Source: a virus (lineage: Duplodnaviria > Caudoviricetes). From it: 64,000 nucleotides of DNA. The DNA is taken from the IMG/VR virus record IMGVR_UViG_3300035208_001807, positions 1-64,000 of that record; one strand, given 5' to 3'. Below are positions 23,775-64,000 of this stretch, one piece after another. Within the stretch, counting starts at the first letter, position 1, and every line of letters begins with the position of its first letter. A model generated the notes under the pieces. The model was not told the DNA's origin. It made no database searches and saw only the letters and a program-made list of their open reading frames with translations. The position numbers were made by a program, and so were the translations under genes.

Positions 23775-24956
23775 TTACCCTCTCCTGCGTCCAAGCATTC
23801 CAGTCTGATTCAGTTCCGATCCACCGACTTGGCGTTCTCCCGGAGTTCCAGAGATAATACCCATGTCAGCTGGCAGTTCGATCTTGACCTGCTCGGTCTG
23901 ACGCTGAGTGATCTTCTGGCTCATTTCAGAGGCTTCTTTCTTTGCCTCTTCAACAAGATCCTTGATGCGTTGTTCGGGCAGACGCATACCAGCTAGCATG
24001 GTATTGATCGTTAGCTTCTTTACCTCTGTGGTATAGATGCCTCGGTTCAGTCCGCCAGAGCCGATATCTTGTTTGATTGAGTTGAATAGGTTCTCTTCGA
24101 ATGCGTGGGCGTAATCAAAGCCGATAGGCTTCTCAATAACACCAGCCGCACGAATGGCTGTCTTGTGATCGAATCCCGAGGCCAGTAAGCCATTAAGGAT
24201 CTTCTCTACAGCCTTGGTTAGGTATGCGGCGGGATCTGCAGGCTCAGCGCCACTTTCGAGATCGAGCTCCGAGGATCCTAGGATTAAGAAGCCCGGAGTC
24301 ATCAGGCACTTCTTATAGTCCTCGGCATCGAAGGCTGTTTCGGTTGCCATAGAAGACAACTGATTGAACCTATCGAAGAGATCAACGATCTCGCGGTTAG
24401 CTGTTCTCCAGAAGTCTGTTGAGGTCTTCTGGTTCAGGCGTTCTGTAACGCGCTGGTTATCAACTACTACAATAGACTGAATGCCCTTGTAGTTCGCGAT
24501 CTTCTCTAGGCCACGGAGGCAGTTTACCTTCTCGTCAGTGCCTTCGTTCGTTCTTGGAAGGGTAACGATCATTCCAACAGGGATGCCAAGCGCTGAAGCG
24601 ATTTCAGCAACCAAGACACCGCCAAGAGTACCGGTTCCTCCACCAAGTCCAGCAACCACGAAGATGAATTCCTTGTTGTTGAACTTGCGCTGGATCTTCT
24701 TGAGAAGCGTGTTTGCGTATTCATTAATTGCTTGTGCTCCTACATCTGGGTTCTTGCCGGCGCCACCTGCGCCTAGAACTAACTGAATCCTAGAGTTTTC
24801 ATCCTTAGGGATGAAGTTCAAGGTCTCATAGTCCCTATCGGTTAGATTGACAGCCATGGTGTCATATCCGACCTCGGCAAACACATCAGCGATATGGTTG
24901 CCGCAGCCCCCAACTCCGATGATGCCGATATCTAGTGTTCTCTTTACGTCTGACAT
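23775..24956 (-). CDS. Tubulin/FtsZ-family GTPase (TubZ/PhuZ-like)
   Basis: GVGGCG, GAGKNP, GLGGGTGT signature; start taken at MSDVKR with GGAGG RBS. Confidence 0.88.
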   Translation of the reverse strand: MSDVKRTLDIGIIGVGGCGNHIADVFAEVGYDTMAVNLTDRDYETLNFIPKDENSRIQLVLGAGGAGKNPDVGAQAINEYANTLLKKIQRKFNNKEFIFVVAGLGGGTGTLGGVLVAEIASALGIPVGMIVTLPRTNEGTDEKVNCLRGLEKIANYKGIQSIVVVDNQRVTERLNQKTSTDFWRTANREIVDLFDRFNQLSSMATETAFDAEDYKKCLMTPGFLILGSSELDLESGAEPADPAAYLTKAVEKILNGLLASGFDHKTAIRAAGVIEKPIGFDYAHAFEENLFNSIKQDIGSGGLNRGIYTTEVKKLTINTMLAGMRLPEQRIKDLVEEAKKEASEMSQKITQRQTEQVKIELPADMGIISGTPGERQVGGSELNQTGMLGRRRG

Positions 24957-25018
24957 GGAAGCTACCTCCAGCTCTTTCTCTATAGTTTTGTTTACCGACT
25001 TTGCAGTCGGAACGGCGA

Positions 25019-25522
25019 TTAATCTACTAAGGTCCGCAAGGGAGGAGGACCTGGCTTTATTGGTTTCCTCATGTATGGATCGACCTGCGATTCCTGCGAC
25101 TCCACTTGGGGCAGAACTCCCGATGGGAGAGGAGTCACTCCTACTTCCCACATCGGTGTTGGCAAGTACCCCGATACTGCTATCTCCTGGTTGTCCGGGT
25201 AATTGAACCCCGTGTATCCCGAGCGGCCTGTCGCTCCGGAGTACCCCGAGAATCCCGACCACCCCGGTCCTTCCGGACTCTCTACTACTATCATCACTGG
25301 ATGAGCCTGCGACTCCGATGCTTGCTGGGCTGGAGGACGAGGCAGGTCCCCTATGAAGCGGTGCGACGCTCTCTCCATTGCATCGTGTACTCCCTGTATC
25401 TTGCGGTCTATCTCCTGAGCTCTGGTTGTCAGAACTCTTTGCCTCAGTTTCTCTACTGGTTCCAGTAGTCGGCTTGCCAAACTCCAGAGTGAGCTCTTTG
25501 ATGCTGATGTTTTCGAGCTCAT
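25019..25522 (-). CDS. Hypothetical protein with SG repeats and C-terminal LRTLVD
   Basis: GAGG RBS; SGFSGYSGATGRSGYTG. Confidence 0.55.
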   Translation of the reverse strand: MSSKTSASKSSLWSLASRLLEPVEKLRQRVLTTRAQEIDRKIQGVHDAMERASHRFIGDLPRPPAQQASESQAHPVMIVVESPEGPGWSGFSGYSGATGRSGYTGFNYPDNQEIAVSGYLPTPMWEVGVTPLPSGVLPQVESQESQVDPYMRKPIKPGPPPLRTLVD

Positions 25523-25779
25523 TATTCATCATCCTCTCGGCTGCGCCCATTACAGTCTCTTTGGCTAATTGCCGATAGTGATTCTGTGCAGGAAGATGAT
25601 GCGGGCAGGCTTTGTAAGTACATCCGGGGTGTGGACACTTGGGTAAATGCCATAAAGTCCCTCCAGGACCTTTAAGTTGACTAGTTCCTAAGATGTAGCA
25701 GTAAATCACTGATCGTCCTCTCCAGAAACGATCTACGTATTGTACATAACCTTTGGAGTATCATTATCATCTTTAGGCA

Positions 25780-46800: not shown

Positions 46801-47598
46801 TTGGAATACCGTAATACAACTCCATATAATGTCGAAGACCCGAAGCAGTTCATCGATATGCTTCGGACTCAGCTTGAGAGTTATCTCACTGAGTATAAGT
46901 TGGAGTCTTGTGTTCTTGGTGTTAGTGGCGGGCTTGATTCTGCCCTTGTGGCTGCAATAGCAGCTCCTATCTGTAAGAAGTTGCATGTTCAGTTCATCTG
47001 CGCCTCTCTTCCTTCTGCTACTAACAAGCCTGATGAAGTTGATCGGGCGAGTCGCACCCTTGCCTTTGGTAGTTCTGCCATCATCCGTCTCATTGACGAA
47101 GACCTTGTTTCGATTCCCTACATCTCTGCTCATCCTGATAAGCAGGAGAAGATCCGCCTTGGTAATGTCAAGGCTCGTGTCCGCATGATCCTTCTTTATG
47201 ATCTAGCTGGTCATTATAAGGGGATTGTTCTTGGTACAGATAACTGGACCGAGAAGCAGCTTGGCTTCTGGACACTTCATGGCGATGTGGGTGACTTCAA
47301 TCTTATTCAGAATGTCACTAAGTCTGATGTCTATATCCTAGCTCAATGGCTTGCTGACCATGAGTTAACTGATGGTCTTAAGCAGGTCATGCTAGATACC
47401 ATCGCAGCTACTCCGACAGATGGACTAGGAATCACTAGTTCAGATCTTGAACAGATCGGTGCCTCTTCCTATCAGGAAGTGGATCGAATTCTATTGGGTT
47501 TCTTTCAGGGGCAGTGTGCAGACCCTGGTCACCCAGTGATTCAACGCCATGAGCGCACGCATTTCAAGCGGGCGAATCCTAAGAATGTGGGAGACTAA
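46801..47598 (+). CDS. nadE: NH3-dependent NAD synthetase
   Basis: GVSGGLDS, GNVKARVRM, GTDN, HGD, PTDGL. Confidence 0.92.
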   Translation: MEYRNTTPYNVEDPKQFIDMLRTQLESYLTEYKLESCVLGVSGGLDSALVAAIAAPICKKLHVQFICASLPSATNKPDEVDRASRTLAFGSSAIIRLIDEDLVSIPYISAHPDKQEKIRLGNVKARVRMILLYDLAGHYKGIVLGTDNWTEKQLGFWTLHGDVGDFNLIQNVTKSDVYILAQWLADHELTDGLKQVMLDTIAATPTDGLGITSSDLEQIGASSYQEVDRILLGFFQGQCADPGHPVIQRHERTHFKRANPKNVGD

Positions 47599-47599
47599 C

Positions 47600-48220
47600 A
47601 TGATCGTCAGTATGGATGTCGATGCTCAGCGTGGTTTTACTCCACTTTGTCCTAATGAGCTGCCCGTGGCAGATGGGGACAAGATTGTGGATGCCCTGAA
47701 CGCTCAGGCAAAGCTTGCCCAGGCACGAGTTGGTTCCAAGGATGCACATCCTCAGGATGCTCGTTGGACCAGAGAGACCCCCTTTACTCCTGTGAAGGAT
47801 TCGGCCAATGTTGATCTCTGCTGGCCTCGCCATTGCGTAGTGGGAACTGAGGGCAATAAGCTTCTGCCTGGCCTTCCCAATGTCATTGACTATGATTTCT
47901 TCGTCTTCAAGGGCTGCGAGCCTGACCTCCATCCCTATGGGGCTTGTTATCATGACCTGAAGGATACTCTCTCTACGGGTCTGATCGAGTACCTTAAAGG
48001 TATCGGGACCAAGACTGTCATTGTTGGTGGTCTAGCTACCGATTACTGCGTGAAGACAACTGCTCTTCAGCTTAAGCGAGCCAAGTTCGATGTTATCTTG
48101 AACTTGGAGGCTTGCCGCGGTGTTGCCCCTGAATCTTCTGATAAGGCTATCGAAGAGATGATAACAGCCGGGATCAAGGTTGTTGCCAAGACTAGTGATA
48201 TCAAGGAACTGCTCAAATGA
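47600..48220 (+). CDS. pncA: Nicotinamidase
   Basis: VDAQRGF, KDAH, WPRHC, GLATDYCV. Confidence 0.9.
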   Translation: MIVSMDVDAQRGFTPLCPNELPVADGDKIVDALNAQAKLAQARVGSKDAHPQDARWTRETPFTPVKDSANVDLCWPRHCVVGTEGNKLLPGLPNVIDYDFFVFKGCEPDLHPYGACYHDLKDTLSTGLIEYLKGIGTKTVIVGGLATDYCVKTTALQLKRAKFDVILNLEACRGVAPESSDKAIEEMITAGIKVVAKTSDIKELLK

Positions 48221-49380
48221 TCAAGTCTCTTCTCGATAACGACCTTTATAAACTCACCATGATGCAGGCTGTGTGGGCGAAGTTCCACAAGGCTCAGGCC
48301 GTGTATGAGTTTAAGTGCCGGACCAAGGGTGTGGTCTGGACTAAGGAGCAGTTCGAGAAGCTTGGCGAGAACTTTGCCTGCTTGCAGGGCCTTAAGGCTA
48401 CAACGGCAGAGCTGGACTACTTGTATGAAACCGGCCTTTTCAAGGACGAGTTCATCGTTTTCTTGCATGGCTTCGAGCTGGGTATCGAAAGCCTCGGGCT
48501 TGGATGGGATGAGAAGACAGGCGAGCTGGACTTGTCTATCTGTGGTTCTTGGCTGGACACCATCCTTCTTGAGGTTCCAGTCCTTGCCATCATCAACCAG
48601 ACCTATTTCCAGACTAAGAATAACACCGAGGGCATTTCTCGCATGAATGCCAAGATCGAAATGCTTGAGAAGTTGAGTGATCCTACCTTCAAGTTTGTGG
48701 ACTTTGGTACCCGGCGCCGCTACTCTCGTGAGTGGCAGGAGCGTATCGTCAAGGCCTTGAAACAATTCGCTCCCACCAACTTTGTTGGTACCTCGAATGT
48801 CAAGCTTGCCATGGATCACAATCTTCCTTGTGTGGGGACCATGGCTCATGAATGGATCATGGCCGGGCAAGGGATGTGCTGTGCACCCCGTCTAGCTCAG
48901 CGTGTCATGCTGGACAAGTGGGCTGAGGTTTATAAGGGCAAGCTGGGCATCGCCCTTAGCGATACTCTTGGAACCATCAACTTCCTTAAGGATTTTGATG
49001 GCCGGCTGGCCAGGATGTATGATGGAATGCGCCAGGATAGTGGGGACCCTTATAAGTGGCTTGAATGGGTCCTTTTCCACTATAATACTCTTGGCATTGA
49101 TGCCAAGACCAAGCGAGCTGTCTTCAGTGACAATCTGTCAATTGGTACCGCGCATAATATCCATCAGGCTGTTGCTGGACGTATCCAGGACTCCTATGGA
49201 ATCGGGACCAACCTCACTAATGACTGCGGGCCTGAACCGCTCAATATCGTCATCAAAATGACGGAGTGTAACAATCACCCAGTGGTTAAGTTTAGTGATG
49301 TTCCTACTAAGGCCATGGGGGATGACTTTCAGCAGCAGTTGATGCGCAAAGAGTACGAATATCAAACTACGCTTGTCTAA
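48217..49380 (+). CDS. pncB: Nicotinate phosphoribosyltransferase
   Basis: LLDNDLYKLTM, DFGTRRR, GTMAHEW, RQDSGDP, GIGTNL. Confidence 0.92.
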   Translation: MIKSLLDNDLYKLTMMQAVWAKFHKAQAVYEFKCRTKGVVWTKEQFEKLGENFACLQGLKATTAELDYLYETGLFKDEFIVFLHGFELGIESLGLGWDEKTGELDLSICGSWLDTILLEVPVLAIINQTYFQTKNNTEGISRMNAKIEMLEKLSDPTFKFVDFGTRRRYSREWQERIVKALKQFAPTNFVGTSNVKLAMDHNLPCVGTMAHEWIMAGQGMCCAPRLAQRVMLDKWAEVYKGKLGIALSDTLGTINFLKDFDGRLARMYDGMRQDSGDPYKWLEWVLFHYNTLGIDAKTKRAVFSDNLSIGTAHNIHQAVAGRIQDSYGIGTNLTNDCGPEPLNIVIKMTECNNHPVVKFSDVPTKAMGDDFQQQLMRKEYEYQTTLV

Positions 49381-52483: not shown

Positions 52484-53503
52484 ATGCCACTTGCTTCCAT
52501 TCAGAAGGTTCTTTCTCTTACCCCTATCCCTGGTGCCGATGCCATTGAGTGCGCTCATGTACTCGGCTGGGATTGTGTAGTTAAGAAGGGCGAGTTCAAA
52601 GTTGGGGACCTTGGTGTCTATATCGAGATCGATTCTATCGTTCCTGATGTCCCCCAGTTTGAGTTCCTTCGGAGCAAGCATTTCCGTGTGAAGACGATCC
52701 GTCTTCGTGGCCAGCTTTCGCAGGGCCTTTTCATGCCTCGGGCAGAAACGGCCCAGAGCCTTCCTGAGGGTTTCGACGTTACCGATCTTCTCATGGTTAA
52801 GAAGTATGAGAAGGAAATCCCTGCTGAACTGCGTGGCACTGTCAAGGGTACTCGCCCCAGCTTCATCCCTAAGACGGATGAGGAGCGCATCCAGTCTTGT
52901 AAGCATGTTCTGGATGAGATTCGCGACTTGCCTGTTTACATCACCACCAAGTGCGACGGTTCTTCCATGACCGCCTACTACAAACTGGGCGAGCCCATGT
53001 CTGAGGGCGAGTTTGGTGTTTGCTCTCGGAATATGGAGCTGAAGGAAGATGAGAACAACGCCTTCTGGAAGGTAGCCAAGGCTCTGAATCTTCCTGAGAA
53101 GATGAAGGCTTTTGGCAAGAGTATCGCCATTCAGGGCGAACTCTGTGGCCCCGGCATCCAGAAGAACCCTATGGGTTTGAGCGAACCTACTCTTTATGGG
53201 TTCAATGTGGTCTATCTGGATGGTAGTGGCTATGCTGACTTCAGTCAGATGGCTCAGATCTTTGATGAGTTGGGTGTGACTCCGGCGCCCCTGCTGACTT
53301 CGAATGTCAAGCTGAGTGACTACCTCCATAGTGAGCCAACTACTGAGAATGTAGTTGCTGCTGCTGATGGCAAGTATGCCAATGGCTCTCCACGAGAGGG
53401 TATTGTGATCCGGCCAATGAACGAGACTTACAGTCCTACGCTTAAGGGGCGTATGTCCTTCAAGGCTGTCAGCAATGTCTACCTAGAAAAGGTTGAGAAG
53501 TAA
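52484..53503 (+). CDS. RNA ligase (DRB0094/Rnl5-like)
   Basis: N-terminal OB fold (IPGADAIE..LRGQLSQGL), KCDGSS, QGELCGPGIQKN, EGIVIR, FK. Confidence 0.88.
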   Translation: MPLASIQKVLSLTPIPGADAIECAHVLGWDCVVKKGEFKVGDLGVYIEIDSIVPDVPQFEFLRSKHFRVKTIRLRGQLSQGLFMPRAETAQSLPEGFDVTDLLMVKKYEKEIPAELRGTVKGTRPSFIPKTDEERIQSCKHVLDEIRDLPVYITTKCDGSSMTAYYKLGEPMSEGEFGVCSRNMELKEDENNAFWKVAKALNLPEKMKAFGKSIAIQGELCGPGIQKNPMGLSEPTLYGFNVVYLDGSGYADFSQMAQIFDELGVTPAPLLTSNVKLSDYLHSEPTTENVVAAADGKYANGSPREGIVIRPMNETYSPTLKGRMSFKAVSNVYLEKVEK

Positions 53504-53513
53504 GGACTAGGCA

Positions 53514-53930
53514 ATGTCATTTACTGAACTTGATCCTAAGCTTATACCCAAAGACATCAATGGGCGCCTTATTGAGCCTGGGTATAAGGTAGTAAATAGG
53601 CGCTCAAGCTATTGCTCAGGCTACATAGGTGGCTATCTTCTGAAGAGAGGGAGAAGCAGAGAAACCTATGGCTGGTGGTATGTATCTCTTGATGATGTCG
53701 AAGCTGGTGTTCAACATCGTTTTCCTGGTTGGGACGATTATAGTGAGCTCTTCTATCTGGACACTAGTGTTCAGATTGTGGTTCCTGTACTCTCAAGTGC
53801 AGAAGTTGCACGGGTTGAGGATCTTAACGAAGGATTCAATATTTATGTGGGTCCTCAAGTTTGGTTGCCGAAACCAGTTCCGCCGCCTATTCGTCGCCCA
53901 AGAGCAACCCTGAATGAACTAGTTGATTAG
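53514..53930 (+). CDS. Hypothetical protein with C-terminal LNELVD
   Basis: KDINGRLIEPG N-terminus; AAGGA RBS. Confidence 0.55.
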   Translation: MSFTELDPKLIPKDINGRLIEPGYKVVNRRSSYCSGYIGGYLLKRGRSRETYGWWYVSLDDVEAGVQHRFPGWDDYSELFYLDTSVQIVVPVLSSAEVARVEDLNEGFNIYVGPQVWLPKPVPPPIRRPRATLNELVD

Positions 53931-54522
53931 GAGTAGTATGGAAACGTTCTTCACTGCGGATACTCATTTCTTCCATGAGATGTTGATCACTGGACGCGGT
54001 GGCGAGGGTTCGCCGCGGCCTATGTTCAAGACAGTTGAGGAGATGAACGAGACCATCGTTGCTGGTTGGAACTCTGTTGTTACCAAGCAGGATAGAATCT
54101 TCCACCTTGGAGACTTTGCTCTTGGTATGGCTTCCATTGCTGAGATGCAGGGCATATTCGATCGTCTGAATGGCCAGAAAATACTTATCCCTGGCAATCA
54201 TGACATGAAGAACAACAAGGTGATCAAGCATCTTCGTTGGTCTGAGATCTATGAGTGTCGTCTTCTGAAAGTTGGCGGCCGCCACATTTGGCTCTCTCAT
54301 TATCCCCATCTCTCCTGGCCAGGTTCTTGTCACGGCTCTTGGCATCTTCATGGTCATTCGCATGGGAACATCACAGGTCGTGGACATATCTTGGATGTTG
54401 GTGTAGACTGTAACAAGTTCACACCTATAGCTTTTCCCGAGGTTGCTGTTGCGATGGCTACCCGAGGTGAGAATCCCGATCAGGTTCCTGGTCGTACATT
54501 ATCTGCGGAGGATGAGCTTTGA
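53923..54522 (+). CDS. Metallophosphoesterase
   Basis: ADTHFFH, LGDF, GNHD, SHYP, HGHSH, DVGVD. Confidence 0.88.
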   Translation: MIRSSMETFFTADTHFFHEMLITGRGGEGSPRPMFKTVEEMNETIVAGWNSVVTKQDRIFHLGDFALGMASIAEMQGIFDRLNGQKILIPGNHDMKNNKVIKHLRWSEIYECRLLKVGGRHIWLSHYPHLSWPGSCHGSWHLHGHSHGNITGRGHILDVGVDCNKFTPIAFPEVAVAMATRGENPDQVPGRTLSAEDEL

Positions 54523-54959: not shown

Positions 54960-55556
54960 ATGACGGAGTGGGTTAAGAATTGGTTTTCCAACTTCGAACC
55001 TCTTGAGGATCCTATCATAGTTGATGGGGTTAAATGCTGGACCGTCGAAAGCTACTTCCAATCCCAGAAAGCTACTGACATCGAGACCCGTAGGCAGCTG
55101 GCAGCGTTGCCACCTGCCCTAGCTAAGAAAAGGGCTCGCTCCATTGAGCTTCGGAGTGATTGGAAGGATGTACGCGTTAGCGTAATGGAAGTTGGCCTTA
55201 GGCATAAGTTCAAACCCGGTACGCAATGGCACCAGAAGTTGTTGGCAACTGTGGGCCCCATAGTTGAGTGGAATAATTGGGGCGATGTCTTCTGGGGTGT
55301 TGATCTTAAGACAAAGCAGGGAGAGAATAATCTCGGCAAGCTTCTAATGAAGATCCGCGATGAATATGTCTCCCGTGATACTGCAAGTGCCGACATGTGT
55401 CGGCGATGTGGAGAACCAGCTAAGGACTATTACGGGCCTTATAAGCTGTGTTCTGCCTGCTTACCGGATGCTGCAAAGCTTATGCAGTTGTATGTCGAGC
55501 ACTCTTTAAGTGCCGACGATATGATTGCTGGGCGCTTTACAATTCCAGACTATTGA
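54960..55556 (+). CDS. NADAR family protein
   Basis: FSNF...TVESYFQSQK...DW...KF...WGDVFWG...NNLGKLLMKIR. Confidence 0.88.
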   Translation: MTEWVKNWFSNFEPLEDPIIVDGVKCWTVESYFQSQKATDIETRRQLAALPPALAKKRARSIELRSDWKDVRVSVMEVGLRHKFKPGTQWHQKLLATVGPIVEWNNWGDVFWGVDLKTKQGENNLGKLLMKIRDEYVSRDTASADMCRRCGEPAKDYYGPYKLCSACLPDAAKLMQLYVEHSLSADDMIAGRFTIPDY

Positions 55557-57163: not shown

Positions 57164-58186
57164 ATGGAGACACCCTCCAATCCTTTGGGGAAGGCTCGTT
57201 CGTTCTGGGCGAAGCCAGAAGGCACAACCGGGATGCTCGTGGCTTTGGGCCTGGGCGCCGCTGGCCTTCTAAGTCTTAACAAGATCCTCCCACTCCTTAT
57301 CTCAGCTCTTGAGAATACCCTGCATGCCACTATCCTTGGTGTTGGCTTAGCAGCGGTTCTCTGGGTGCTGTTTGATAAGCGGTTCCGGACGCTGGCTTGG
57401 TATGGTTACCAAAGCCTTATGCGCTGGATTACCAGCTGGTTCGTGACGGTTGACCCAATCGGGATCGTCAAGAACTACATTCTTGAGATGAAGAGAAATC
57501 TTGAGAAGATGCAGAACCAGATCGGGAACCTTCGTGGTCAGATTACGAGTCTTGCTCGTACTATCACTACGAATGAGGCGAAGATCGACCAGTGTATGAA
57601 GCTGGCGAAGGAAGCCGAGAAACAGAATAAGGTCCCCGAGCAGATGTTAAATACTCGTCAGGCGGGTCGTCTGGATGAGTCTAACAAGCGTATCGAGACC
57701 CTTCGTGTGAAGCTGGAGGTCCTGTATCGCGTTCTCCGTAAGATGTCGGAGACTGCGGATGTGGTTATCCAAGACACCGAAGCGGAGGTCGAGTGCAAGG
57801 AAGACGAGTGGAAAGCTATCACTGCTGGTAACGCTGCTATGCGTTCGGCGATGGCCATCATGCGTGGCGATGTGGACAAGAAGGCTCTCTTCGAACAGTC
57901 AATGGAGTTCCTCGTTACCGACATTTGCAATAAGGTCGGCGAGATGGACAACTTCATGGACATGAGCCAGAAGATCACCAGTCAGATCGACCTGGAGAAC
58001 GGCGTGTTCGAGCAAGAAGGCTTGAAGATGTTGGAGCAGTGGGAGCAGAAGGCTGATTCGGGGGCGTTGCTGAAGCCCTCCGATAAGAAGCGCATTCTGC
58101 GAGAAGCAGCTGACCCGAGCGCGGACATCGAGTCCTTGCCGGAAGTGAAGGTAAGTTCTTACAAGAACGTCCTTCGCAGGAAGTAA
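57164..58186 (+). CDS. Membrane-anchored coiled-coil protein, PspA/IM30-like
   Basis: Two TMs, DPIGIVKNYI, then long coiled coil. Confidence 0.5.
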   Translation: METPSNPLGKARSFWAKPEGTTGMLVALGLGAAGLLSLNKILPLLISALENTLHATILGVGLAAVLWVLFDKRFRTLAWYGYQSLMRWITSWFVTVDPIGIVKNYILEMKRNLEKMQNQIGNLRGQITSLARTITTNEAKIDQCMKLAKEAEKQNKVPEQMLNTRQAGRLDESNKRIETLRVKLEVLYRVLRKMSETADVVIQDTEAEVECKEDEWKAITAGNAAMRSAMAIMRGDVDKKALFEQSMEFLVTDICNKVGEMDNFMDMSQKITSQIDLENGVFEQEGLKMLEQWEQKADSGALLKPSDKKRILREAADPSADIESLPEVKVSSYKNVLRRK

Positions 58187-58213: not shown

Positions 58214-59773
58214 ATGACGGAAGGTTTCAAGAAGTTGCTGAAGATCTTGTTGGTCTTCGCGGTCTTGGGTGGTGGCTATTACTACCTCAAGTCCACGGGC
58301 ACCATCAAGAAGATGAATGCGGTCGGTTCCAAACCGATCCCGAAGGACGCTTTTGGTGGCGGCAGCTCTGATGCCCCTGGGAAACTGACTCGGCCAATGA
58401 CGGTCGGGCTCTGTACCTTCCCTGGTTATTCGGGCGGCCCCTATTACAACAACGGCTTCAAGGCCAGCGAGAATAGCGGATTCTTCCGCGACTCAGGCCT
58501 GAAGGTGCAGTTCATCCAGAACGACAATGCTGAAGGTGGTAAGGCGGCTTGGCGTAAGGGTGCGTACGATGCCTGGTGGTGCACGATCGACTCCTTCCCG
58601 GTGGACGCAGGTGGATTGGCTGAAAACGAGCCAGTCATGATCTTGCAGTCCGACTGGTCACGAGGTGCCGATGCTATCGTGGTCTCCAACGACATCAAGA
58701 CGGTTGCTGACTTGAAGGGCAAGGAAATTGCTTGCGCTATCGGCTCTCCGTCACACACGCTCCTACTTTGGATGCTGTCATCCAACAACATGTCGATGTC
58801 TGACATCGAGTTGGTTACGGTCCAGAATGCGATCGATGCGGCCAGTATGTTCAAGGCTCGCAAGGTCAAGGCTGCTGTGGTTTGGGCGCCGGACGATTCC
58901 GACTGTGTCGCTAACGTCCCCGGTGCTCATGTCTTGGTTAGCTCCAAGACTGCCTCGAAGATCATCGCTGACTGCTTCTATGTCAAGAGGTCGTTCTTGG
59001 ATGCTCATCCAGACGATGTCAAGGCATTGGTCCGCGGGTGGTTGAAGGGTGCAGCTGACATCAACTCTTCGGATACGGCACGCCGGAAGGCTGCTCAGAT
59101 CCTTGCGGTTGGTTTCAACGTTGACGAGGCCTTCTGTTATGAGGGCATCGGAAACGTTCGCCTGTGTACCTATGGCGATAACCTCAACTTCTTTGGTCTG
59201 AACCGAGCCTATGTCGGCCAGACAGGCCAGAAGCTCTACGAGAAGATGGGCCCTCTCTGGCAGACCTTGAAGTTGGCCAGTGATACTATGCCTGCTTGGC
59301 GTGCTCTCACGGATCAAGAAGTTCTGCGTGGGATCACGGACCTGAAGCGTACAGCTGACCTTGCCGAGGGCGAGAAGCAGTTCGCAAAGCTGGATGTGGT
59401 TACTGAAGAGAAACTGCAGTCCATCTCTACCAATCGGGTGACGATCAACTTCGCCTCTGGTTCAGCTACACTGGACGAGACGGCCAAGTACATCATCCAG
59501 GACAAGTTCGGTCCTATGGTGCAAGGCTTCGAAGCTGCTCGTGTTCGTGTCGAGGGCAATACCGATAATATCGGTGACTCGGCTATGAACGTACGCCTCT
59601 CGAAGGCTCGTGCACAGGCGGTTGTTAACTTCCTTGTCGAGAAGTATCGACTGGACTCTGACCGCTTCGTGGTTCGTGGCAACGGGATGGATAATCCGGT
59701 GGCTGGCAATGATACCGACGAAGGTCGGGCTGCCAACCGTCGTACGGACTTCGAACTTCTGCAGGAGAAGTAA
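58214..59773 (+). CDS. NMT1/SsuA-type substrate-binding protein fused to OmpA domain
   Basis: DWSRGADAIV..IKTVADLKGK; EGNTD..LSKARA..NRRTDF. Confidence 0.85.
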   Translation: MTEGFKKLLKILLVFAVLGGGYYYLKSTGTIKKMNAVGSKPIPKDAFGGGSSDAPGKLTRPMTVGLCTFPGYSGGPYYNNGFKASENSGFFRDSGLKVQFIQNDNAEGGKAAWRKGAYDAWWCTIDSFPVDAGGLAENEPVMILQSDWSRGADAIVVSNDIKTVADLKGKEIACAIGSPSHTLLLWMLSSNNMSMSDIELVTVQNAIDAASMFKARKVKAAVVWAPDDSDCVANVPGAHVLVSSKTASKIIADCFYVKRSFLDAHPDDVKALVRGWLKGAADINSSDTARRKAAQILAVGFNVDEAFCYEGIGNVRLCTYGDNLNFFGLNRAYVGQTGQKLYEKMGPLWQTLKLASDTMPAWRALTDQEVLRGITDLKRTADLAEGEKQFAKLDVVTEEKLQSISTNRVTINFASGSATLDETAKYIIQDKFGPMVQGFEAARVRVEGNTDNIGDSAMNVRLSKARAQAVVNFLVEKYRLDSDRFVVRGNGMDNPVAGNDTDEGRAANRRTDFELLQEK

Positions 59774-60579
59774 TGTTCTCTGGTCTCTTTACACTGAGGG
59801 GGTCTACTTCCAAACAGGCCTCCTCAGTTATGACCTTTACGGGGATTGCAGCCCTTCTACTGATTTGGGAGCTCGCCGTCTGGTGCGGCTTCATCAGTGA
59901 GGGGTTGTTGCCCTCTCCTGTGTCAGTGTTTAAGGCCTATGGGCCTTTACTGCATAGGGATGATCTGATCCCCAATGTCATCTACTCATTCCGGCTTAAC
60001 CTTTGGTCTTACCTAGAAGCAATTGCGATCGCTGTTCCTCTAGGTTTTATCATTGGTCTTTTCCCTGTGTTCAGGGAGTCCCTGCGAACACCACTCGATG
60101 CATTACGGTTCTTACCTATGACCGCTTTAGTTGGTCCCTTCATTGGTTGGTTCGGCATTGCCGACAATATGAAGATCCAGTTCCTTGCAGCTTGTATCGC
60201 TGTCTATCTGCTTCCAGTAGTTGTGCAGCGAGTGCAGGAAACGAACGAGATCTACGTTCAAGCAGTTCTTACGCTTAGTGCTAAGCAGTGGCATAGGATT
60301 ACGAAGGTCTTCATACCAGACGTAATGTCTAAGGTATTTGATGACATTCGTGTCATGGTTGCTATCTCTTGGACTTATTTGATCGTGGCAGAAGGCGTTA
60401 ACAACACGGGTGGCGTTGGTGCCATGTGTTATATCGCCGGCCGGCAGAGCAGATTCGATAAGGTATTTGCCATCTTAGTGGTAATTATCCTTATCGGGTA
60501 TGTGCAGGACAAGATCTTCATGTGGCTGGACAGAATTCTGTTCCCCCACAAATTCCAAGGAGCTTCTCATGCGAAGTAA
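59773..60579 (+). CDS. ABC permease (SsuC/TauC type)
   Basis: LLPSP, multiple TMs, ISWTYLIVAE. Confidence 0.85.
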   Translation: MFSGLFTLRGSTSKQASSVMTFTGIAALLLIWELAVWCGFISEGLLPSPVSVFKAYGPLLHRDDLIPNVIYSFRLNLWSYLEAIAIAVPLGFIIGLFPVFRESLRTPLDALRFLPMTALVGPFIGWFGIADNMKIQFLAACIAVYLLPVVVQRVQETNEIYVQAVLTLSAKQWHRITKVFIPDVMSKVFDDIRVMVAISWTYLIVAEGVNNTGGVGAMCYIAGRQSRFDKVFAILVVIILIGYVQDKIFMWLDRILFPHKFQGASHAK

Positions 60580-61222
60580 GTCATTACTGGTTGCGCTTCT
60601 GATGCTGATGGCAAACGTTTCTTTTGGACTGGGTCTCTCAGCCCGCGTGGATACCTCCACAAAGTACATGTACCGCGGTATCCAGATCGAGAACAACGCG
60701 GTTCTGCAGCCCAGCCTTTCTGTCTTGGCTGGACCTGTGGTCGTGGGTGGCTTTGCCAACTACAACTTGGACCTGAACCAGTACGACGAAGTTGATGCCT
60801 TTGGCTCACTTTCGTTCGGGCTGGGTCGCTTTGCTGCTACGGTCGGCGCCCAGGGTTACTTCCTTGATGGCATCGATGACATGGCTGACGTTAACATGTC
60901 ACTCATTCATACTGATGTTAAGGGCTTTACCCTTACCGGTGCCTATAACTTCCTTAATTGGAAGGGTCTTTACGCTGAGCTGAACTATGGGTACCTCGTG
61001 CCTATGCATTCATTCTCTCTGGCTCCTACCATGGGAGTTGGCTACAACAAGGACTACATGCGTGTGGGCAGTGGCTTGTCCCACGTCTATCTGTCTATTC
61101 CCCTGACTTACCAATGGGGTAAGAAAGCCCGCCTTATCTTGACAGGATTCCACCAAGAACACTTGTCAGATGACTTCAAATCGGTTACGATGGGCCAGTT
61201 CAGCTTCGTCCGGGACATCTAA
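60569..61222 (+). CDS. Putative outer-membrane beta-barrel (TorF-like)
   Basis: Signal peptide, KYMYRG..VLQP, alternating aromatic beta strands; AAGGAG RBS. Confidence 0.6.
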   Translation: MRSKSLLVALLMLMANVSFGLGLSARVDTSTKYMYRGIQIENNAVLQPSLSVLAGPVVVGGFANYNLDLNQYDEVDAFGSLSFGLGRFAATVGAQGYFLDGIDDMADVNMSLIHTDVKGFTLTGAYNFLNWKGLYAELNYGYLVPMHSFSLAPTMGVGYNKDYMRVGSGLSHVYLSIPLTYQWGKKARLILTGFHQEHLSDDFKSVTMGQFSFVRDI

Positions 61223-61223
61223 C

Positions 61224-62021
61224 ATGGCCAAGCAGGAAACTGACAACTATCTTATCGAGTTCAAGGATGTGTGTCAGAGCTATCCCGATAAGAAGGACGT
61301 AATCAAGGGCTTTGACCTGATCGTAGACCAGGAGCCTGGTACCGATAAGGTTATTGGTATCCTTGGTCCTTCTGGTTGTGGGAAGTCGACCATCCTGCGC
61401 TATCTCTCTGCCCTACAAAAGCCCACCTCTGGTGGTGTTTTCATCAAGGGCGAGCCGATTACGGACAACACTGTTGTAGGGATGGTGTTTCAACAGTATT
61501 CATCTTTACCATGGTATACTGTGTTGGAAAATGTTGCGCTTGGTCTTGAGCTTCGCGGAGTTCCTCTCAAGGAACGTACCGAGAAGGCCATGGAAATGAT
61601 CAAGCTGGTGGGCCTTGAAGGACATGAGAAGAAGCGCGCACTGTCACCTGCGCTCTCAGGTGGGCAGTTGCAGCGCGTTGCGATTGGCCGGAGTCTTCTA
61701 GCCAACTCACAAATTCTCTTGATGGATGAGCCTTTTGGTGCTCTTGATGTGAGTACCAGGCTTAGTATGCAGGAACTGCTGCGTAGCGTTCTTAGCATGC
61801 CAGATGACATGACAGTAATGTTTGTTACTCATGACATTCCGGAAGCTGTCTATCTCTCGGATGAGATCCAGATTATGGGAGCTAATCCTGGGCGTATAGT
61901 TGATACTATCGAACTCAACTGGCCTAAGGATAGAGAGCCCTCAATCAAGCGAGAGCCGAAGTTCGTAAAGATGGTCTACGATATCGAAGATCGTATGGCC
62001 AAGTTGAAGAAGCAGAAGTAG
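61224..62021 (+). CDS. ABC ATPase (SsuB/TauB type)
   Basis: GPSGCGKST, LSGGQ, LMDEPFGALD, VTHD. Confidence 0.92.
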   Translation: MAKQETDNYLIEFKDVCQSYPDKKDVIKGFDLIVDQEPGTDKVIGILGPSGCGKSTILRYLSALQKPTSGGVFIKGEPITDNTVVGMVFQQYSSLPWYTVLENVALGLELRGVPLKERTEKAMEMIKLVGLEGHEKKRALSPALSGGQLQRVAIGRSLLANSQILLMDEPFGALDVSTRLSMQELLRSVLSMPDDMTVMFVTHDIPEAVYLSDEIQIMGANPGRIVDTIELNWPKDREPSIKREPKFVKMVYDIEDRMAKLKKQK

Positions 62022-62104
62022 AGATACTCAAGTAGCAACGAGGACGGGCTGTAAACCCGTTGCCCGCGAGGGCTTCGTAGGTGCAAGTCCTACTCTCTAC
62101 ACCA
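62018..62104 (+). tRNA. tRNA-Tyr(GTA)
   Basis: ACGGG-CTGTAAA-CCCGT, long variable arm, ACCA. Confidence 0.85.
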
Positions 62105-62115
62105 TTGAGGGACTT

Positions 62116-62451
62116 ATGCCTCCATCCAAACGTGTTCCTAACCAGGTTCCTGAAGGTACAAAGATTGTACCGTCAGAGCAGTGGTATAAGGACAGACACC
62201 TATACTTTACGACTATGCCTCGTGAGATGTGCATTGGGGTCGTGAAGGCTTGTGATTATGGCAAGCTCCTAGTAGTATGGCCCGAAGGTTGCTCTGGTGG
62301 CAATCCAGGCGGAGAGGCAGCTAATAAACTGCCTCGTAGTGAGTATGCAAGGGCTTGGTGGGTGAATGCCCCCGATATGCTTTTAGAAGGCTATGCCTTC
62401 GAGCCTGCTCCTGAACGTGCTCGTCCTAAGCTGGACCAACTAGTAGATTAG
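62116..62451 (+). CDS. Hypothetical protein with C-terminal LDQLVD
   Basis: GAGGG RBS; lies between tRNAs. Confidence 0.55.
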   Translation: MPPSKRVPNQVPEGTKIVPSEQWYKDRHLYFTTMPREMCIGVVKACDYGKLLVVWPEGCSGGNPGGEAANKLPRSEYARAWWVNAPDMLLEGYAFEPAPERARPKLDQLVD

Positions 62452-62524
62452 TCATGGTGGCCGAGTGGTTAGGTTGCGGCCTGCAAAGCCGCCTACGAGA
62501 GTCCGATTCTCTCCCATGACTCCA
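62451..62524 (+). tRNA. tRNA-Cys(GCA)
   Basis: GCGGC-CTGCAAA-GCCGC, U73, CCA. Confidence 0.88.
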
Positions 62525-62536
62525 TTTGAGGTCTTC

Positions 62537-62803
62537 ATGAACCCCATTATCCAGAACTGGACTATCTCTCCCCATAAGTCAAAAGATGGACGTTGGTACT
62601 TCAGACTTCATGGTAACATCCATGGGCATCCTGACTACCCCCGGATCACTGATGGTGAGTACTGCCATACCTCCGAGATTCTCTCTATTGATTTTAGGGA
62701 TAATCTTGTAGTTACTAGGAGTCGCACCTATCAGCTTGGGAAGCCAGAACCCGAGAGCACTCTTAATAAGGCTATGGTTCTCAATGAACTTACTAAGGCT
62801 TAA
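62537..62803 (+). CDS. Hypothetical phage protein
   Basis: IQNW...LHGNIHGHP...DG...TSEI...TRSRTYQLG. Confidence 0.55.
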   Translation: MNPIIQNWTISPHKSKDGRWYFRLHGNIHGHPDYPRITDGEYCHTSEILSIDFRDNLVVTRSRTYQLGKPEPESTLNKAMVLNELTKA

Positions 62804-63566
62804 GAAGTTTGCCAATGGACGGGTCTATGCCCTCCAGACTCAAGATGGCTATCCTCTTGAGACGACGGACACATTCCTTCCCTCTTATACTAAAGAGGCA
62901 ACTGGGCGCCGGCAAAATACCCTATCTAATACTGATTTAGGTAGCAGGCATAACCGGTGGATGGTTGGTGTGTCAGTAATGTCAGGCTGTCCTGTGGGAT
63001 GTAAGTTCTGTGCGACTGGTCAGTTGTCTAGATGGCGTAAGCTGACCGCTGATGAGATCGTGGACCAGGTCAAGTTCATCGTTGGATCTAATCCCGACTA
63101 TAACCCAAATGAGGCCTATGAGTTCAAGATCAACTATACCCGCATGGGTGAGCCTTTTCTGAACTTAGAGGCCGTAAAAGAGGCCATAGGACGCATTTCT
63201 GAGCTATTCCCGAAGGCCCATCACTACGTCTCAACTATCGGAGTCAAAGGCTCGACTTTTGACTGGATTCATGATAGGATAACCCTACAGTTGAGTTTGC
63301 ACAGTTTAGATGAAACTCGACGCCATGCCTTGATCCCATATCCTACAATGTCTATTGAGGAGTTGGGGCAAGTTCGTACGAAGAGTGCCCTGAAGACGAC
63401 GGTGAATTTGACCTTAGTTGACAAGGCCGATTTTGACATACAGGCTCTTAAGAAGTACTTCGATCCTATGTACTTCTTCATCAAGCTGAGCCCTATCAAT
63501 CCTAATGCAACGTCTGAGAAGAATGGACTAGGCAAAGGGATTGTGCAGCAGATCAATCTGGTATAA
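62784..63566 (+). CDS. RlmN/Cfr-like radical SAM protein lacking C-terminal tail
   Basis: LET, SGCPVGCKFCATG, LTADEIVDQV, MGEP, VST, LSLH. Confidence 0.85.
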   Translation: MNLLRLKKFANGRVYALQTQDGYPLETTDTFLPSYTKEATGRRQNTLSNTDLGSRHNRWMVGVSVMSGCPVGCKFCATGQLSRWRKLTADEIVDQVKFIVGSNPDYNPNEAYEFKINYTRMGEPFLNLEAVKEAIGRISELFPKAHHYVSTIGVKGSTFDWIHDRITLQLSLHSLDETRRHALIPYPTMSIEELGQVRTKSALKTTVNLTLVDKADFDIQALKKYFDPMYFFIKLSPINPNATSEKNGLGKGIVQQINLV

Positions 63567-63576
63567 GGAGTCTCCC

Positions 63577-63699
63577 ATGGAAGATATCAAGAATCAACTC
63601 GAAGCGGCCGGCTATGACTTTGCCGTCGCGATCGCGACCCAAGCGGAGATTAATAACCAGGCAGCCTGCGGCCAGCTTGCCATCGTAACCTCCGAATAA
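63577..63699 (+). CDS. 40-aa peptide carrying the RlmN AACGQL motif
   Basis: AAGGAG RBS; MEDIKNQLEAAGYDFAVAIATQAEINNQAACGQLAIVTSE. Confidence 0.85.
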   Translation: MEDIKNQLEAAGYDFAVAIATQAEINNQAACGQLAIVTSE

Positions 63700-63718
63700 C
63701 AAACCCTTTTACCCTTGC

Positions 63719-63794
63719 GGGGACATAGCTTAGCGGCCAAAGCGTCCGGCTGTCTACCGGAAGACCTGGGGTTCAAATCCCCATGTCCTCGCCA
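63719..63794 (+). tRNA. tRNA-Asp(GTC) with U37
   Basis: TCCGG-CTGTCTA-CCGGA, TTCAAAT T-loop, GCCA. Confidence 0.88.
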
Positions 63795-63807
63795 TATTTT
63801 CTCATAC

Positions 63808-63844
63808 ACGGCAGTGGTCCAACGGTTGGGCAGCGGCCTCCAAA
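63808..63844 (+). pseudogene. 5' half of interrupted tRNA-Trp(CCA)
   Basis: ACGGCAG-TG-GTCC..GGGC-A-GCGGC-CTCCAAA, then no GCCGC strand. Confidence 0.65.
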
Positions 63845-63895
63845 AGAATTAGTATCCAAACTCTAATTGGTGTTATAATACTCATGGAGGGTATT

Positions 63896-64000
63896 ATGGC
63901 AACCAAAGAATGGATTCAAACTCATCAGAAAGAGATGCGTGCTTATCGTAGAAAGCACTATCGAGCTAATAGAGAACAATATTATGCTCGTAATAGAAAA
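63896..64000 (+). CDS. Partial ORF, probable homing endonuclease N-terminus
   Basis: MATKEWIQTHQKEMRAYRRKHYRANREQYYARNRK; GGAGG RBS; TGTTATAAT upstream; truncated by window end. Confidence 0.5.
   Translation, partial: MATKEWIQTHQKEMRAYRRKHYRANREQYYARNRK

Follow-up and report, generated by a model that had tools for sequence, protein, structure and literature searches.

A candidate two-chain RlmN/Cfr-type radical SAM module of phages, with its carrier cysteine on a separate 40-residue protein

RlmN and Cfr are, to our knowledge, the only characterised class-A radical S-adenosylmethionine (SAM) methyl synthases, and the ping-pong mechanism by which they use two cysteines is a textbook example. 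RlmN, known from E. coli and others, is the methyl synthase of 23S ribosomal RNA (rRNA) m2A2503 and transfer RNA (tRNA) m2A37, where m2A is 2-methyladenosine (TIGR00048; PDB 3RFA, 4PL1, 5HR6/5HR7, 6FZ6). Cfr is the antibiotic-resistance enzyme that makes 8-methyladenosine at the same rRNA site (23S rRNA m8A2503 methyl synthase; TIGR04432; PDB 9P0P), with C338 as its carrier and C105 as its resolving cysteine. Here we examine a two-gene module near the end of a 64,000-nucleotide (nt) stretch of DNA, hereafter the window, which is the first 64 kb of the 149,407-bp virus record IMGVR_UViG_3300035208_001807 (Caudoviricetes). Its first gene encodes a radical SAM protein of 260 amino acids (aa), the core, and its second a 40-aa peptide bearing the counterpart of the RlmN carrier cysteine. 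An earlier note, made from the sequence alone, had described the pair as a split RlmN/Cfr-like enzyme that would attach the peptide permanently to an adenine in tRNA, rRNA or DNA. Its description of the genes holds, and its choice of target fares poorly.

The module shares with RlmN the radical SAM core, the CxxxCxxC, ET, MGEP and SLH motifs, the NP strand, the AACGQL methyl-carrier loop and the predicted first half-reaction. In contrast to RlmN, it consists of two polypeptides, with the carrier cysteine (C355 in RlmN) supplied by the separate 40-aa protein; it also lacks the ~60-residue N-terminal RNA-docking domain, has Gly in place of Cys118, and reaches a fifth of the family cut-off score. 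Two residues, Arg120 and Lys234, are specific to the module and other clades without the resolving cysteine, and the target of the module is probably not RNA. The class-A mechanism and fold are likewise common to the module and Cfr (profile match E 4.5e-13); the differences are those listed for RlmN, and nothing in the module points to a resistance function. A literature search returned no account of an RlmN-like system that is split or carried by phages, nor of a radical SAM component in phage NAD (nicotinamide adenine dinucleotide) pathways. Kaminska et al. 2010 mention a small subfamily of unknown function and nothing further. The module is an undescribed variant of the class-A radical SAM enzymes.

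The earlier note had stated that the 260-aa protein carries the RlmN hallmarks and stops before the C-terminal tail, and every one of these statements is borne out: the motifs ET (residues 26-27), TRMGEP (119-124) and SLHS (171-174) are all present. In Pfam the core matches Radical_SAM (30.2 bits) and no second domain, and neither Pfam nor NCBIfam revealed a SPASM/twitch auxiliary-cluster domain. The top NCBIfam match is RlmN TIGR00048 (61.9 bits, E 4.8e-17), below the family cut-off of 290; the score against Cfr TIGR04432 is 46.2 bits, below its cut-off of 550. When a profile of 23 family members was compared with the PDB, the matches were to RlmN (6fz6, E 1.9e-18; also 4pl1, 5hr6 and 3rf9) and to Cfr (9p0p, E 4.5e-13). 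Similarly, the core profile aligned with residues 94-299 of P0258, a bona fide RlmN that we used as a reference (298 bits on TIGR00048), with an hhalign probability of 99.7% and E 1.6e-26. On these matches, the core is an RlmN/Cfr-type (class-A) radical SAM protein. A word-index search recovered 2511 homologues at E <= 0.001, and the best 120 of the 2511 are almost all 258-267 aa long. The cysteines of this copy are C69, C73 and C76, within SGCPVGCKFCATG, and there are no others. The claim that the enzyme has just three cysteines is thus right for this copy and wrong for the family, since homologues often carry one or two additional, non-conserved ones.

The N-terminal domain of RlmN has no counterpart: 68 residues precede the first cluster cysteine, and the alignments begin at RlmN residues 94-117. 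Seven residues before that cysteine (position -7), Gly62 aligns with the resolving cysteine of RlmN, both in 6fz6 ('TTVCVSCQVGC') and in 4pl1, a C118A mutant; in the profile alignment, 'erwmiGvsvmsGc' faces 'DRTTVCVSCQVGC'. Glycine at the resolving-cysteine position, as the earlier note had it, is thus confirmed by hidden Markov model (HMM) and profile alignments to RlmN structures.

The core protein ends ...QQINLV, its TAA stop codon occupying 63564-63566, and the ATG of the peptide follows 10 nt later, at 63577, in a different frame; the peptide stop codon is at 63697-63699. The separate 40-aa open reading frame (ORF) with its own AAGGAG, predicted earlier, is therefore real, and it ends NQAACGQLAIVTSE. 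The start of the core is preceded by AAGG only, at a spacing of 12 nt, and from this comparison of ribosome-binding sites the peptide may be translated more efficiently than the core. The full peptide is MEDIKNQLEAAGYDFAVAIATQAEINNQAACGQLAIVTSE. Its profile aligned with the last 29 residues of RlmN P0258 (317-345, including AACGQLAI; hhalign probability 79.7%, E 1.5e-5). Profile-profile comparison was required for this, as the peptide profile alone, searched against PDB sequences, gave no RlmN match at E up to 10. An alignment of 17 diverse peptides contains 13 invariant positions (L8, G12, A16, A18, A20, T21, E24, A30, C31, G32, Q33, L34 and I36), and conservation extends over the entire peptide, unlike a leader followed by a variable core. 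By profile alignment, then, core and peptide together tile RlmN from the beta-extension to the end, the N-terminal helical domain and the resolving cysteine being the parts that are missing. That core and peptide both match one and the same RlmN bears out the reading of the two genes as two halves of an RlmN/Cfr-type enzyme.

To define how widely this layout is kept, we made three collection scans; a single protein as query returned nothing, and an alignment as query worked. The census counts 199 loci in which the core is complete; at 80% identity they form 38 lineages. Glycine is found at -7 in 199 of 199 loci, and a separate peptide gene on the same strand in 196 of them, lying within 200 nt in 127 cases, at 200-2500 nt in 68 and upstream in one. 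All 196 peptides keep the cysteine (ACGQ in 193, ACSQ in 2 and ACGM in 1), and the C-terminal end position is identical across all aligned cores. The co-occurrence of the split with Gly at the C118 site, which the earlier note had proposed as a check, thus holds, and to a degree that chance could not account for. The family signature is accordingly a ~260-aa core ending ~20 residues past the SPINxN strand, Gly at -7, and a separate ~40-aa GY.[YF]A.A.AT...AACGQL gene. The core and the peptide are the only genes common to the window and the other loci, and no conserved third gene was found beside the window's module.

The two genes do not stem from a frameshift or an assembly error. The stretch is present in runs from landfill and groundwater metagenomes, and contigs of two DNA runs from different studies, one of them a possible source of the assembly, cover positions 62000-64000 with zero differences and zero gaps. 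A 178-nt contig of a third study spans the stop/start junction, with a single synonymous change at 63618; this small contig comes from a run labelled RNA-Seq that may be DNA, and no RNA run is listed for the stretch. Relative to the core, the peptide lies in frame 0, 1 or 2 in 22, 67 and 107 loci, respectively. Because both frame and spacing vary freely, we rejected programmed frameshifting or read-through to a fused protein.

Cultured phages carry the same pair. In tblastn searches of isolate phages, a peptide ORF adjoins the core in Kehishuvirus tikkala of Bacteroides (62% identity) and in Moorella phage MTATph1 (43%), and more distant cores were found in Vibrio phage D479 (36%) and in Pectobacterium phages Wc4, Arno18 and Arno162 and Yersinia phage P778 (35%). 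In D479, a 93-aa ORF (L004, 2300-2581) holds two tandem modules with the key residues intact in both, and in Wc4 and P778 it forms the N-terminal part of a protein of 81-98 aa that is encoded one gene further along. Large contigs from cultured Bacteroidales genomes carry the module as well (L131, from Bacteroides congonensis, on a 1.85-Mb contig; L139, L146 and L154), which suggests integrated or co-assembled phages.

Larger and rearranged forms exist as well. A permuted fusion (P0135; L121, 44-991), found in two samples, places the Cys-loop module and a ~20-residue linker in front of a Gly-type core in one 315-aa ORF, which is followed by a second radical SAM gene. The question whether relatives would show a single fused ORF has therefore two answers: the split is unchanged in the contigs of both studies, and in P0135 the module is indeed joined to a Gly-type core, at its N-terminal end. 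A LAGLIDADG intein sits immediately before the third cluster cysteine in more than 20 Gly-type core clusters (P0132, P0280-P0300; SGCPVRCAF / intein / CATAKL), an insertion site that, in these sequences, marks the CxxxCxxC motif as strongly constrained. Among the long forms of the Gly-type clade, 21 have an intein and one bears a GIY-YIG homing endonuclease ahead of the core. In 12 of the 38 lineages the core has a second radical SAM gene at most 6 kb away, of one of two types whose similarity to MoaA and viperin is merely generic, and a ~147-aa methyltransferase-like gene is found within the same distance in 6. Where core and peptide are ~1.2 kb apart, both extra genes are inside the gap, and in P0150 a related core is fused to a second radical SAM domain. 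Neither gene has a homologue anywhere in the 149 kb of the window phage, which shows the minimal two-gene form.

The earlier note had also called for a model of the enzyme-peptide complex. We supplied the core and peptide alignments together with a 4Fe-4S cluster and SAM, and obtained an ipSAE interface score of 0.84 (0.82-0.84 in three runs), as compared with 0.01 for the best of three controls; the calibration mark is reached by 58 of 80 solved complexes and by 2 of 110 mismatched pairs. The runs share at least 91% of their contacts, and the pLDDT of the partner is at least 74. In the model, peptide residues 13-17 pair with core residues 231-235, and the predicted interface on the core comprises residues 231-237, residues 75-78 of the cluster loop, and residues 119 and 121 beside the MGEP SAM motif. 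The model places the peptide in the position of RlmN's own C-terminal unit and supports binding, although this result may reflect likeness to solved RlmN structures.

How special is the loss of the resolving cysteine? We classed the 150 best cluster representatives of an exhaustive search by their -7 residue and by the presence of a tail cysteine in the same chain. Among the 26 representatives with Gly at -7, one has a same-chain tail cysteine and 25 do not; of these 25, 24 end at the end point of the window core and one is a long form with an intein. A same-chain tail cysteine is found in 20 of the 24 with Cys at -7 (absent from 4) and in 32 of the 40 with another residue (I, M, N, T, V or A; absent from 8). 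The split goes with Gly at -7, but the resolving cysteine is also absent from many single-chain relatives. A quick maximum-likelihood tree with an arbitrary root has a branch of 97% SH-aLRT support that sets every Cys(-7) sequence, including canonical RlmN and short phage forms (for example gp133 of Salmonella phage Arash), apart from the split groups and a single-chain clade of 32 representatives. Across 31 aligned sequences of this single-chain clade, the universally conserved cysteines are the three cluster ligands and the tail cysteine. No relocated resolving cysteine was found there; one further column contains Cys, in 14 of the 31. The Cys-less clades have in common Arg120, before MGEP, and Lys234 (FIKLSP); at these sites the canonical enzymes carry Ser/Gly and Thr/Asn.

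The short phage enzymes on the Cys-bearing side, including those of Salmonella phage Arash (gp133), Stenotrophomonas phage ANB28 and Vibrio phage 166E36-1, resemble the module in being phage-borne and in lacking the RNA-docking N-domain. They are ~310 aa long, and members are fused to, or located beside, nucleotide/NAD enzymes (NUDIX, HD, and nicotinamide phosphoribosyltransferase, NAMPT). They differ from the module in carrying both cysteines in one chain (VMCVSTQAGC ... GGGCGQLW) and in lying across the main branch of the tree.

Resolution of the protein-substrate crosslink requires the resolving cysteine, C118 (C105 in Cfr), and a C118A enzyme stays trapped on tRNA (PMC9692996). Given this published work on C118 mutants, a thioether adduct between Cys31 and the substrate is the expected intermediate, and to that extent the crosslinking idea of the earlier note stands. 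Its further step, from a missing C118 to a consumable peptide, does not follow, because the single-chain Cys-less clade and the fused variant would then be suicide enzymes; loss of the cysteine is not peculiar to the split form. The laboratory RlmN C118A/S mutants (PDB 5HR7, a trapped protein-RNA crosslink) lack the resolving cysteine as the module does. Unlike these engineered dead ends, the Cys-less state of the module is natural, ancient and common to a large single-chain clade, which suggests a productive outcome.

The explanation that we hold slightly more probable than not is that of a self-contained phage module, a class-A radical SAM enzyme of the RlmN/Cfr type made of two chains. The core would form a partial barrel that holds the [4Fe-4S]/SAM site; the peptide strand (residues 13-17) would extend the edge of the core sheet (231-235), and its loop would bring Cys31 into the SAM/cluster pocket. 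By analogy with RlmN and Cfr, one SAM would S-methylate Cys31, a second would yield a 5'-deoxyadenosyl radical that abstracts a hydrogen from the methylated Cys31, and the resulting methylene radical would add to an sp2 carbon of a heteroaromatic ring. As there is no resolving cysteine, the thioether adduct could not be broken in the RlmN way, so that the peptide would be joined to its substrate at least transiently, and possibly permanently. Release by another route, giving a C-methylated product, falls a little short of an even chance in our analysis, and the adduct itself being the end product is a doubtful outcome. A diffusible, perhaps stoichiometric carrier is favoured by the strict conservation of the split, by the tandem modules of D479 and by a ribosome-binding site that is stronger on the peptide gene than on the core.

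As to the substrate, we tested which genes accompany the module. The window encodes three genes of a Preiss-Handler-type NAD salvage set just after a tRNA-Met (Table 1), and homologues of these genes abut the module in three other settings (L158, L163 and L161/L162). A census of neighbours took in 148 ORFs from 26 lineages, each at most 3 kb from the core, and the Pfam families seen in it most often were Radical_SAM (8), NUDIX (4), nicotinate phosphoribosyltransferase (NAPRTase; 3), Isochorismatase (3), CTP_transf_like (3), NAD_synthase (2) and NrtR_WHD (2). The module lies within tightly packed, overlapping NAD-salvage operons of differing gene order at two loci. In L158 the order is NAPRTase, an isochorismatase-NAD synthase fusion, a nucleotidyltransferase, core and peptide; in L163 it is NAPRTase, a 256-aa ORF like the isochorismatase-like gene of the window, core, peptide, an NAD-synthase-like gene, a nucleotidyltransferase and a protein kinase. 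Overall, 5-6 of the 38 lineages encode NAD-salvage enzymes within 3 kb of the core, and 7 have NrtR-like Nudix genes at that distance. Fusion partners of the single-chain relatives are Isochorismatase (three representatives), a thioredoxin-reductase-like flavoprotein (two), and NUDIX and HD domains, and the single-chain gene of Vibrio phage 166E36-1 adjoins a NAMPT gene.

Because the RNA-docking domain is absent, tRNA adjacency is rare and the neighbours and fusions are of NAD/Nudix type, we favour a small NAD-type nucleotide over RNA; Arg120 and Lys234, common to the Cys-less clades and absent from canonical RlmN, add to this lead. An adenine or pyridine nucleotide of NAD+/ADP-ribose metabolism is accordingly our leading candidate, tentatively and at less than even odds, and rRNA or tRNA is a possible but clearly weaker one. 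In its most specific form, the proposal is that the module performs radical chemistry on an NAD-type nucleotide with the detachable Cys-peptide as methylene donor. The product would be a phage-private C-methylated NAD+/ADP-ribose analogue or a peptide-nucleotide thioether conjugate, serving as a countermeasure to NAD-depleting or ADP-ribose-signalling defence; taken with all these particulars, it is rather improbable. The phage pathways NARP1, NARP2 and NARP3 offer a parallel, in that they too are phage NAD salvage genes, there directed against NAD-depleting defence, and the module lies within or near such genes in several lineages. They differ in that the published pathways have no radical SAM enzyme, and the genes found here are of the nicotinamidase, NAPRTase, nicotinic acid mononucleotide (NaMN)-adenylyltransferase-like and NAD synthase types.

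Several observations weigh against a NAD-related substrate. The NAD genes of the window are on the same strand as the module and 13.4 kb upstream, not adjoining it, and the chance expectation for NAD neighbours is a rough estimate without a matched control. The domain-fused relatives belong to sister clades at 25-40% identity, outside the Gly-type clade, in which a search for longer proteins found no fusion to a metabolic domain. Kehishuvirus tikkala and Moorella phage MTATph1, two of the five module-bearing isolate phages, have no NAPRTase-family, isochorismatase or NAD synthase gene, and in the other three a NAPRTase-family gene is distant from the module. Finally, all the characterised relatives of the module that we know of act on RNA.

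The reading advanced in the earlier note, in which the peptide is consumed when Cys-S-CH2 links it permanently to an adenine of the host's tRNA, rRNA or DNA, so as to shut off the host, protect RNA or modify bases, is unlikely in our judgement. It would account for Gly at the resolving-cysteine site in every member, RlmN C118 mutants being known to trap this very crosslink (PMC9692996), and for the separateness of the peptide, with which the core could turn over. The two tandem modules in one ORF of D479, the FelixO1-like phages whose module heads 81-98 aa proteins like a portable tag, and the strong ribosome-binding site on the peptide gene and not on the core also fit. However, in the 32 single-chain Cys-less representatives, with no relocated cysteine, a permanent self-crosslink would be suicide, and the N-terminally fused P0135 exists. 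The targets named are themselves disfavoured: the enzyme has no RNA-docking domain, only 3 of 18 lineages have a tRNA gene at 3 kb or less from the module, and the partner genes, for NAD salvage and Nudix enzymes, indicate NAD metabolism.

We consider equally improbable an ordinary RNA adenine C-methylase (of m2A37 or m2A/m8A2503 type) in two chains, used to tune the many phage tRNAs or the ribosome of the host, with resolution of its adduct by another base or an external thiol. Among characterised families RlmN and Cfr come closest, and the window's module lies inside a tRNA array (tRNA-Tyr at 62018, tRNA-Cys at 62451, tRNA-Asp at 63719). The tRNA-Asp begins 20 nt downstream of the peptide stop, and no promoter-like or terminator-like site above chance was found on the + strand between the module and this tRNA. 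Moreover, five of the six module-bearing genomes examined have 22-28 tRNA genes, nearly all with A37. Yet the core scores 61.9 bits against a cut-off of 290, the N-terminal domain and the resolving cysteine are both missing, and such an enzyme leaves the split, kept across 38 lineages, without a reason. Large lytic phages carry tRNA arrays anyway, and we rejected tRNA adjacency as a family trait on the 3-of-18 count.

A related idea, that the adjacent tRNA-Asp is an 'immune' replacement, did not generalise either. Position 37 of tRNA is almost universally a purine. In the window's tRNA-Asp(GUC) (63719-63794) the anticodon loop is C-U-GUC-U-A, with U at position 37, and the Arg(ACG) and His tRNAs of the same phage have G37. 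The tRNA-Asp has A37, as do nearly all other tRNAs, in Kehishuvirus tikkala, Wc4, D479 and P778, which are all four of the other tRNA-bearing module isolates.

Less likely still is a system like those of ribosomally synthesized and post-translationally modified peptides (RiPPs), with the peptide as substrate, the modified peptide as product, and larger cassettes elaborating it through the second radical SAM enzyme and the small methyltransferase. The recurrence of these two genes near the core, their joint position inside the 1.2-kb gaps and the tandem duplication in D479 would be expected of such a system. RiPP maturases of the radical SAM/SPASM kind have an auxiliary-cluster domain, a precursor built of leader and core, and a partner for processing or export, and this is not seen in the module: the core yielded no SPASM domain, conservation spans the entire peptide as RlmN's structural C-terminal unit, and no gene for a protease or an exporter was found repeatedly next to the module. 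The window phage, moreover, does without both elaborating enzymes.

Finally, a frameshifted RlmN-like pseudogene or an assembly error, which two ORFs in different frames 10 nt apart might suggest, is refuted, because the sequence is unchanged in the runs of two studies, the junction is bridged in a third, and 196 of the 199 loci keep the peptide as an ORF of its own, with each of the three frames relative to the core represented and the distance between the two ranging from ~10 nt to 2.5 kb, behind cores that end alike.

Table 1. Features of the two-gene module and of the NAD-salvage genes in the window
Feature	Position	Strand	Remarks
NAD synthase / isochorismatase-nicotinamidase-like / NAPRTase genes	46801..49380	+	Three overlapping genes; functional link to the module is putative
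NAD synthase (NadE)	46801-47598	+	Pfam E 2.1e-35
Isochorismatase/nicotinamidase-like protein	47549-48220	+	Pfam E 1.2e-13
Nicotinate phosphoribosyltransferase (NAPRTase)	48217-49380	+	Pfam E 1.8e-65
Radical SAM core gene	62784..63566	+	260-aa ORF; RlmN/Cfr-like; without N-terminal RNA-docking domain; stops short of C-terminal alpha/beta unit
Codon of Gly62	62967..62969	+	Site of resolving Cys118 of E. coli RlmN; HMM and hhalign alignments
CxxxCxxC motif (C69, C73, C76)	62988..63011	+	Predicted ligands of the SAM-binding [4Fe-4S] cluster, from sequence; invariant in two core alignments
AAGGAG Shine-Dalgarno-like site	63565..63570	+	Overlaps core stop codon; 6 nt upstream of peptide ATG
40-aa Cys-carrier gene	63577..63699	+	Counterpart of RlmN C-terminal helix, strand and flexible loop
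Codon of Cys31	63667..63669	+	Equivalent of methyl-carrier Cys355 of RlmN; motif scan

The remainder of the record is that of a 149-kb myovirus that encodes a tail sheath, a portal and 28 tRNAs. Upstream of the module, ORFs of 95 and 111 aa have no counterpart in other loci and no clear family match. Also upstream is an ABC transporter set (58214-62021) composed of a 519-aa NMT1-type substrate-binding/OmpA-like fusion, a 268-aa permease, an ORF of 240 aa that has no family and a 283-aa ATPase, with a PspA/IM30-like protein just upstream of the set (57164-58186). Farther upstream, an RNA ligase with a PHA02142 OB-fold (52484-53503), a calcineurin-like phosphoesterase (53923-54522) and a NADAR-domain protein (54960-55556) look, from their families, like an RNA-repair and ADP-ribose-processing set. 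On the - strand, a 643-aa protein (23775-25709) gave a weak PhuZ-type tubulin match (PHROG E 1.5e-7). Beyond the window, the record also carries a tRNA with the amber-reading CUA anticodon (121181-121254) and a tRNA with an 8-nt anticodon loop (UAGA; 72606-72695). A crude ORF-length test gave no clear signal of TAG recoding, with TAG terminating 34 of 143 long ORFs.

Taken as a branch of the class-A enzymes, the module family is natural and abundant, keeps its methyl-carrier cysteine on a separate protein of 40 residues, and never had a resolving cysteine. The adduct may be resolved in a novel manner or may itself be the product, and new enzymology would follow in both cases. The repeated embedding of the module in NAD salvage operons provides a testable class of substrates and ties the family to the conflict between phages and bacteria over NAD+. 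With two genes and 300 residues in total, and with cultured phages of Bacteroides, Pectobacterium, Yersinia, Vibrio and Moorella that carry it, the system is small and directly testable.

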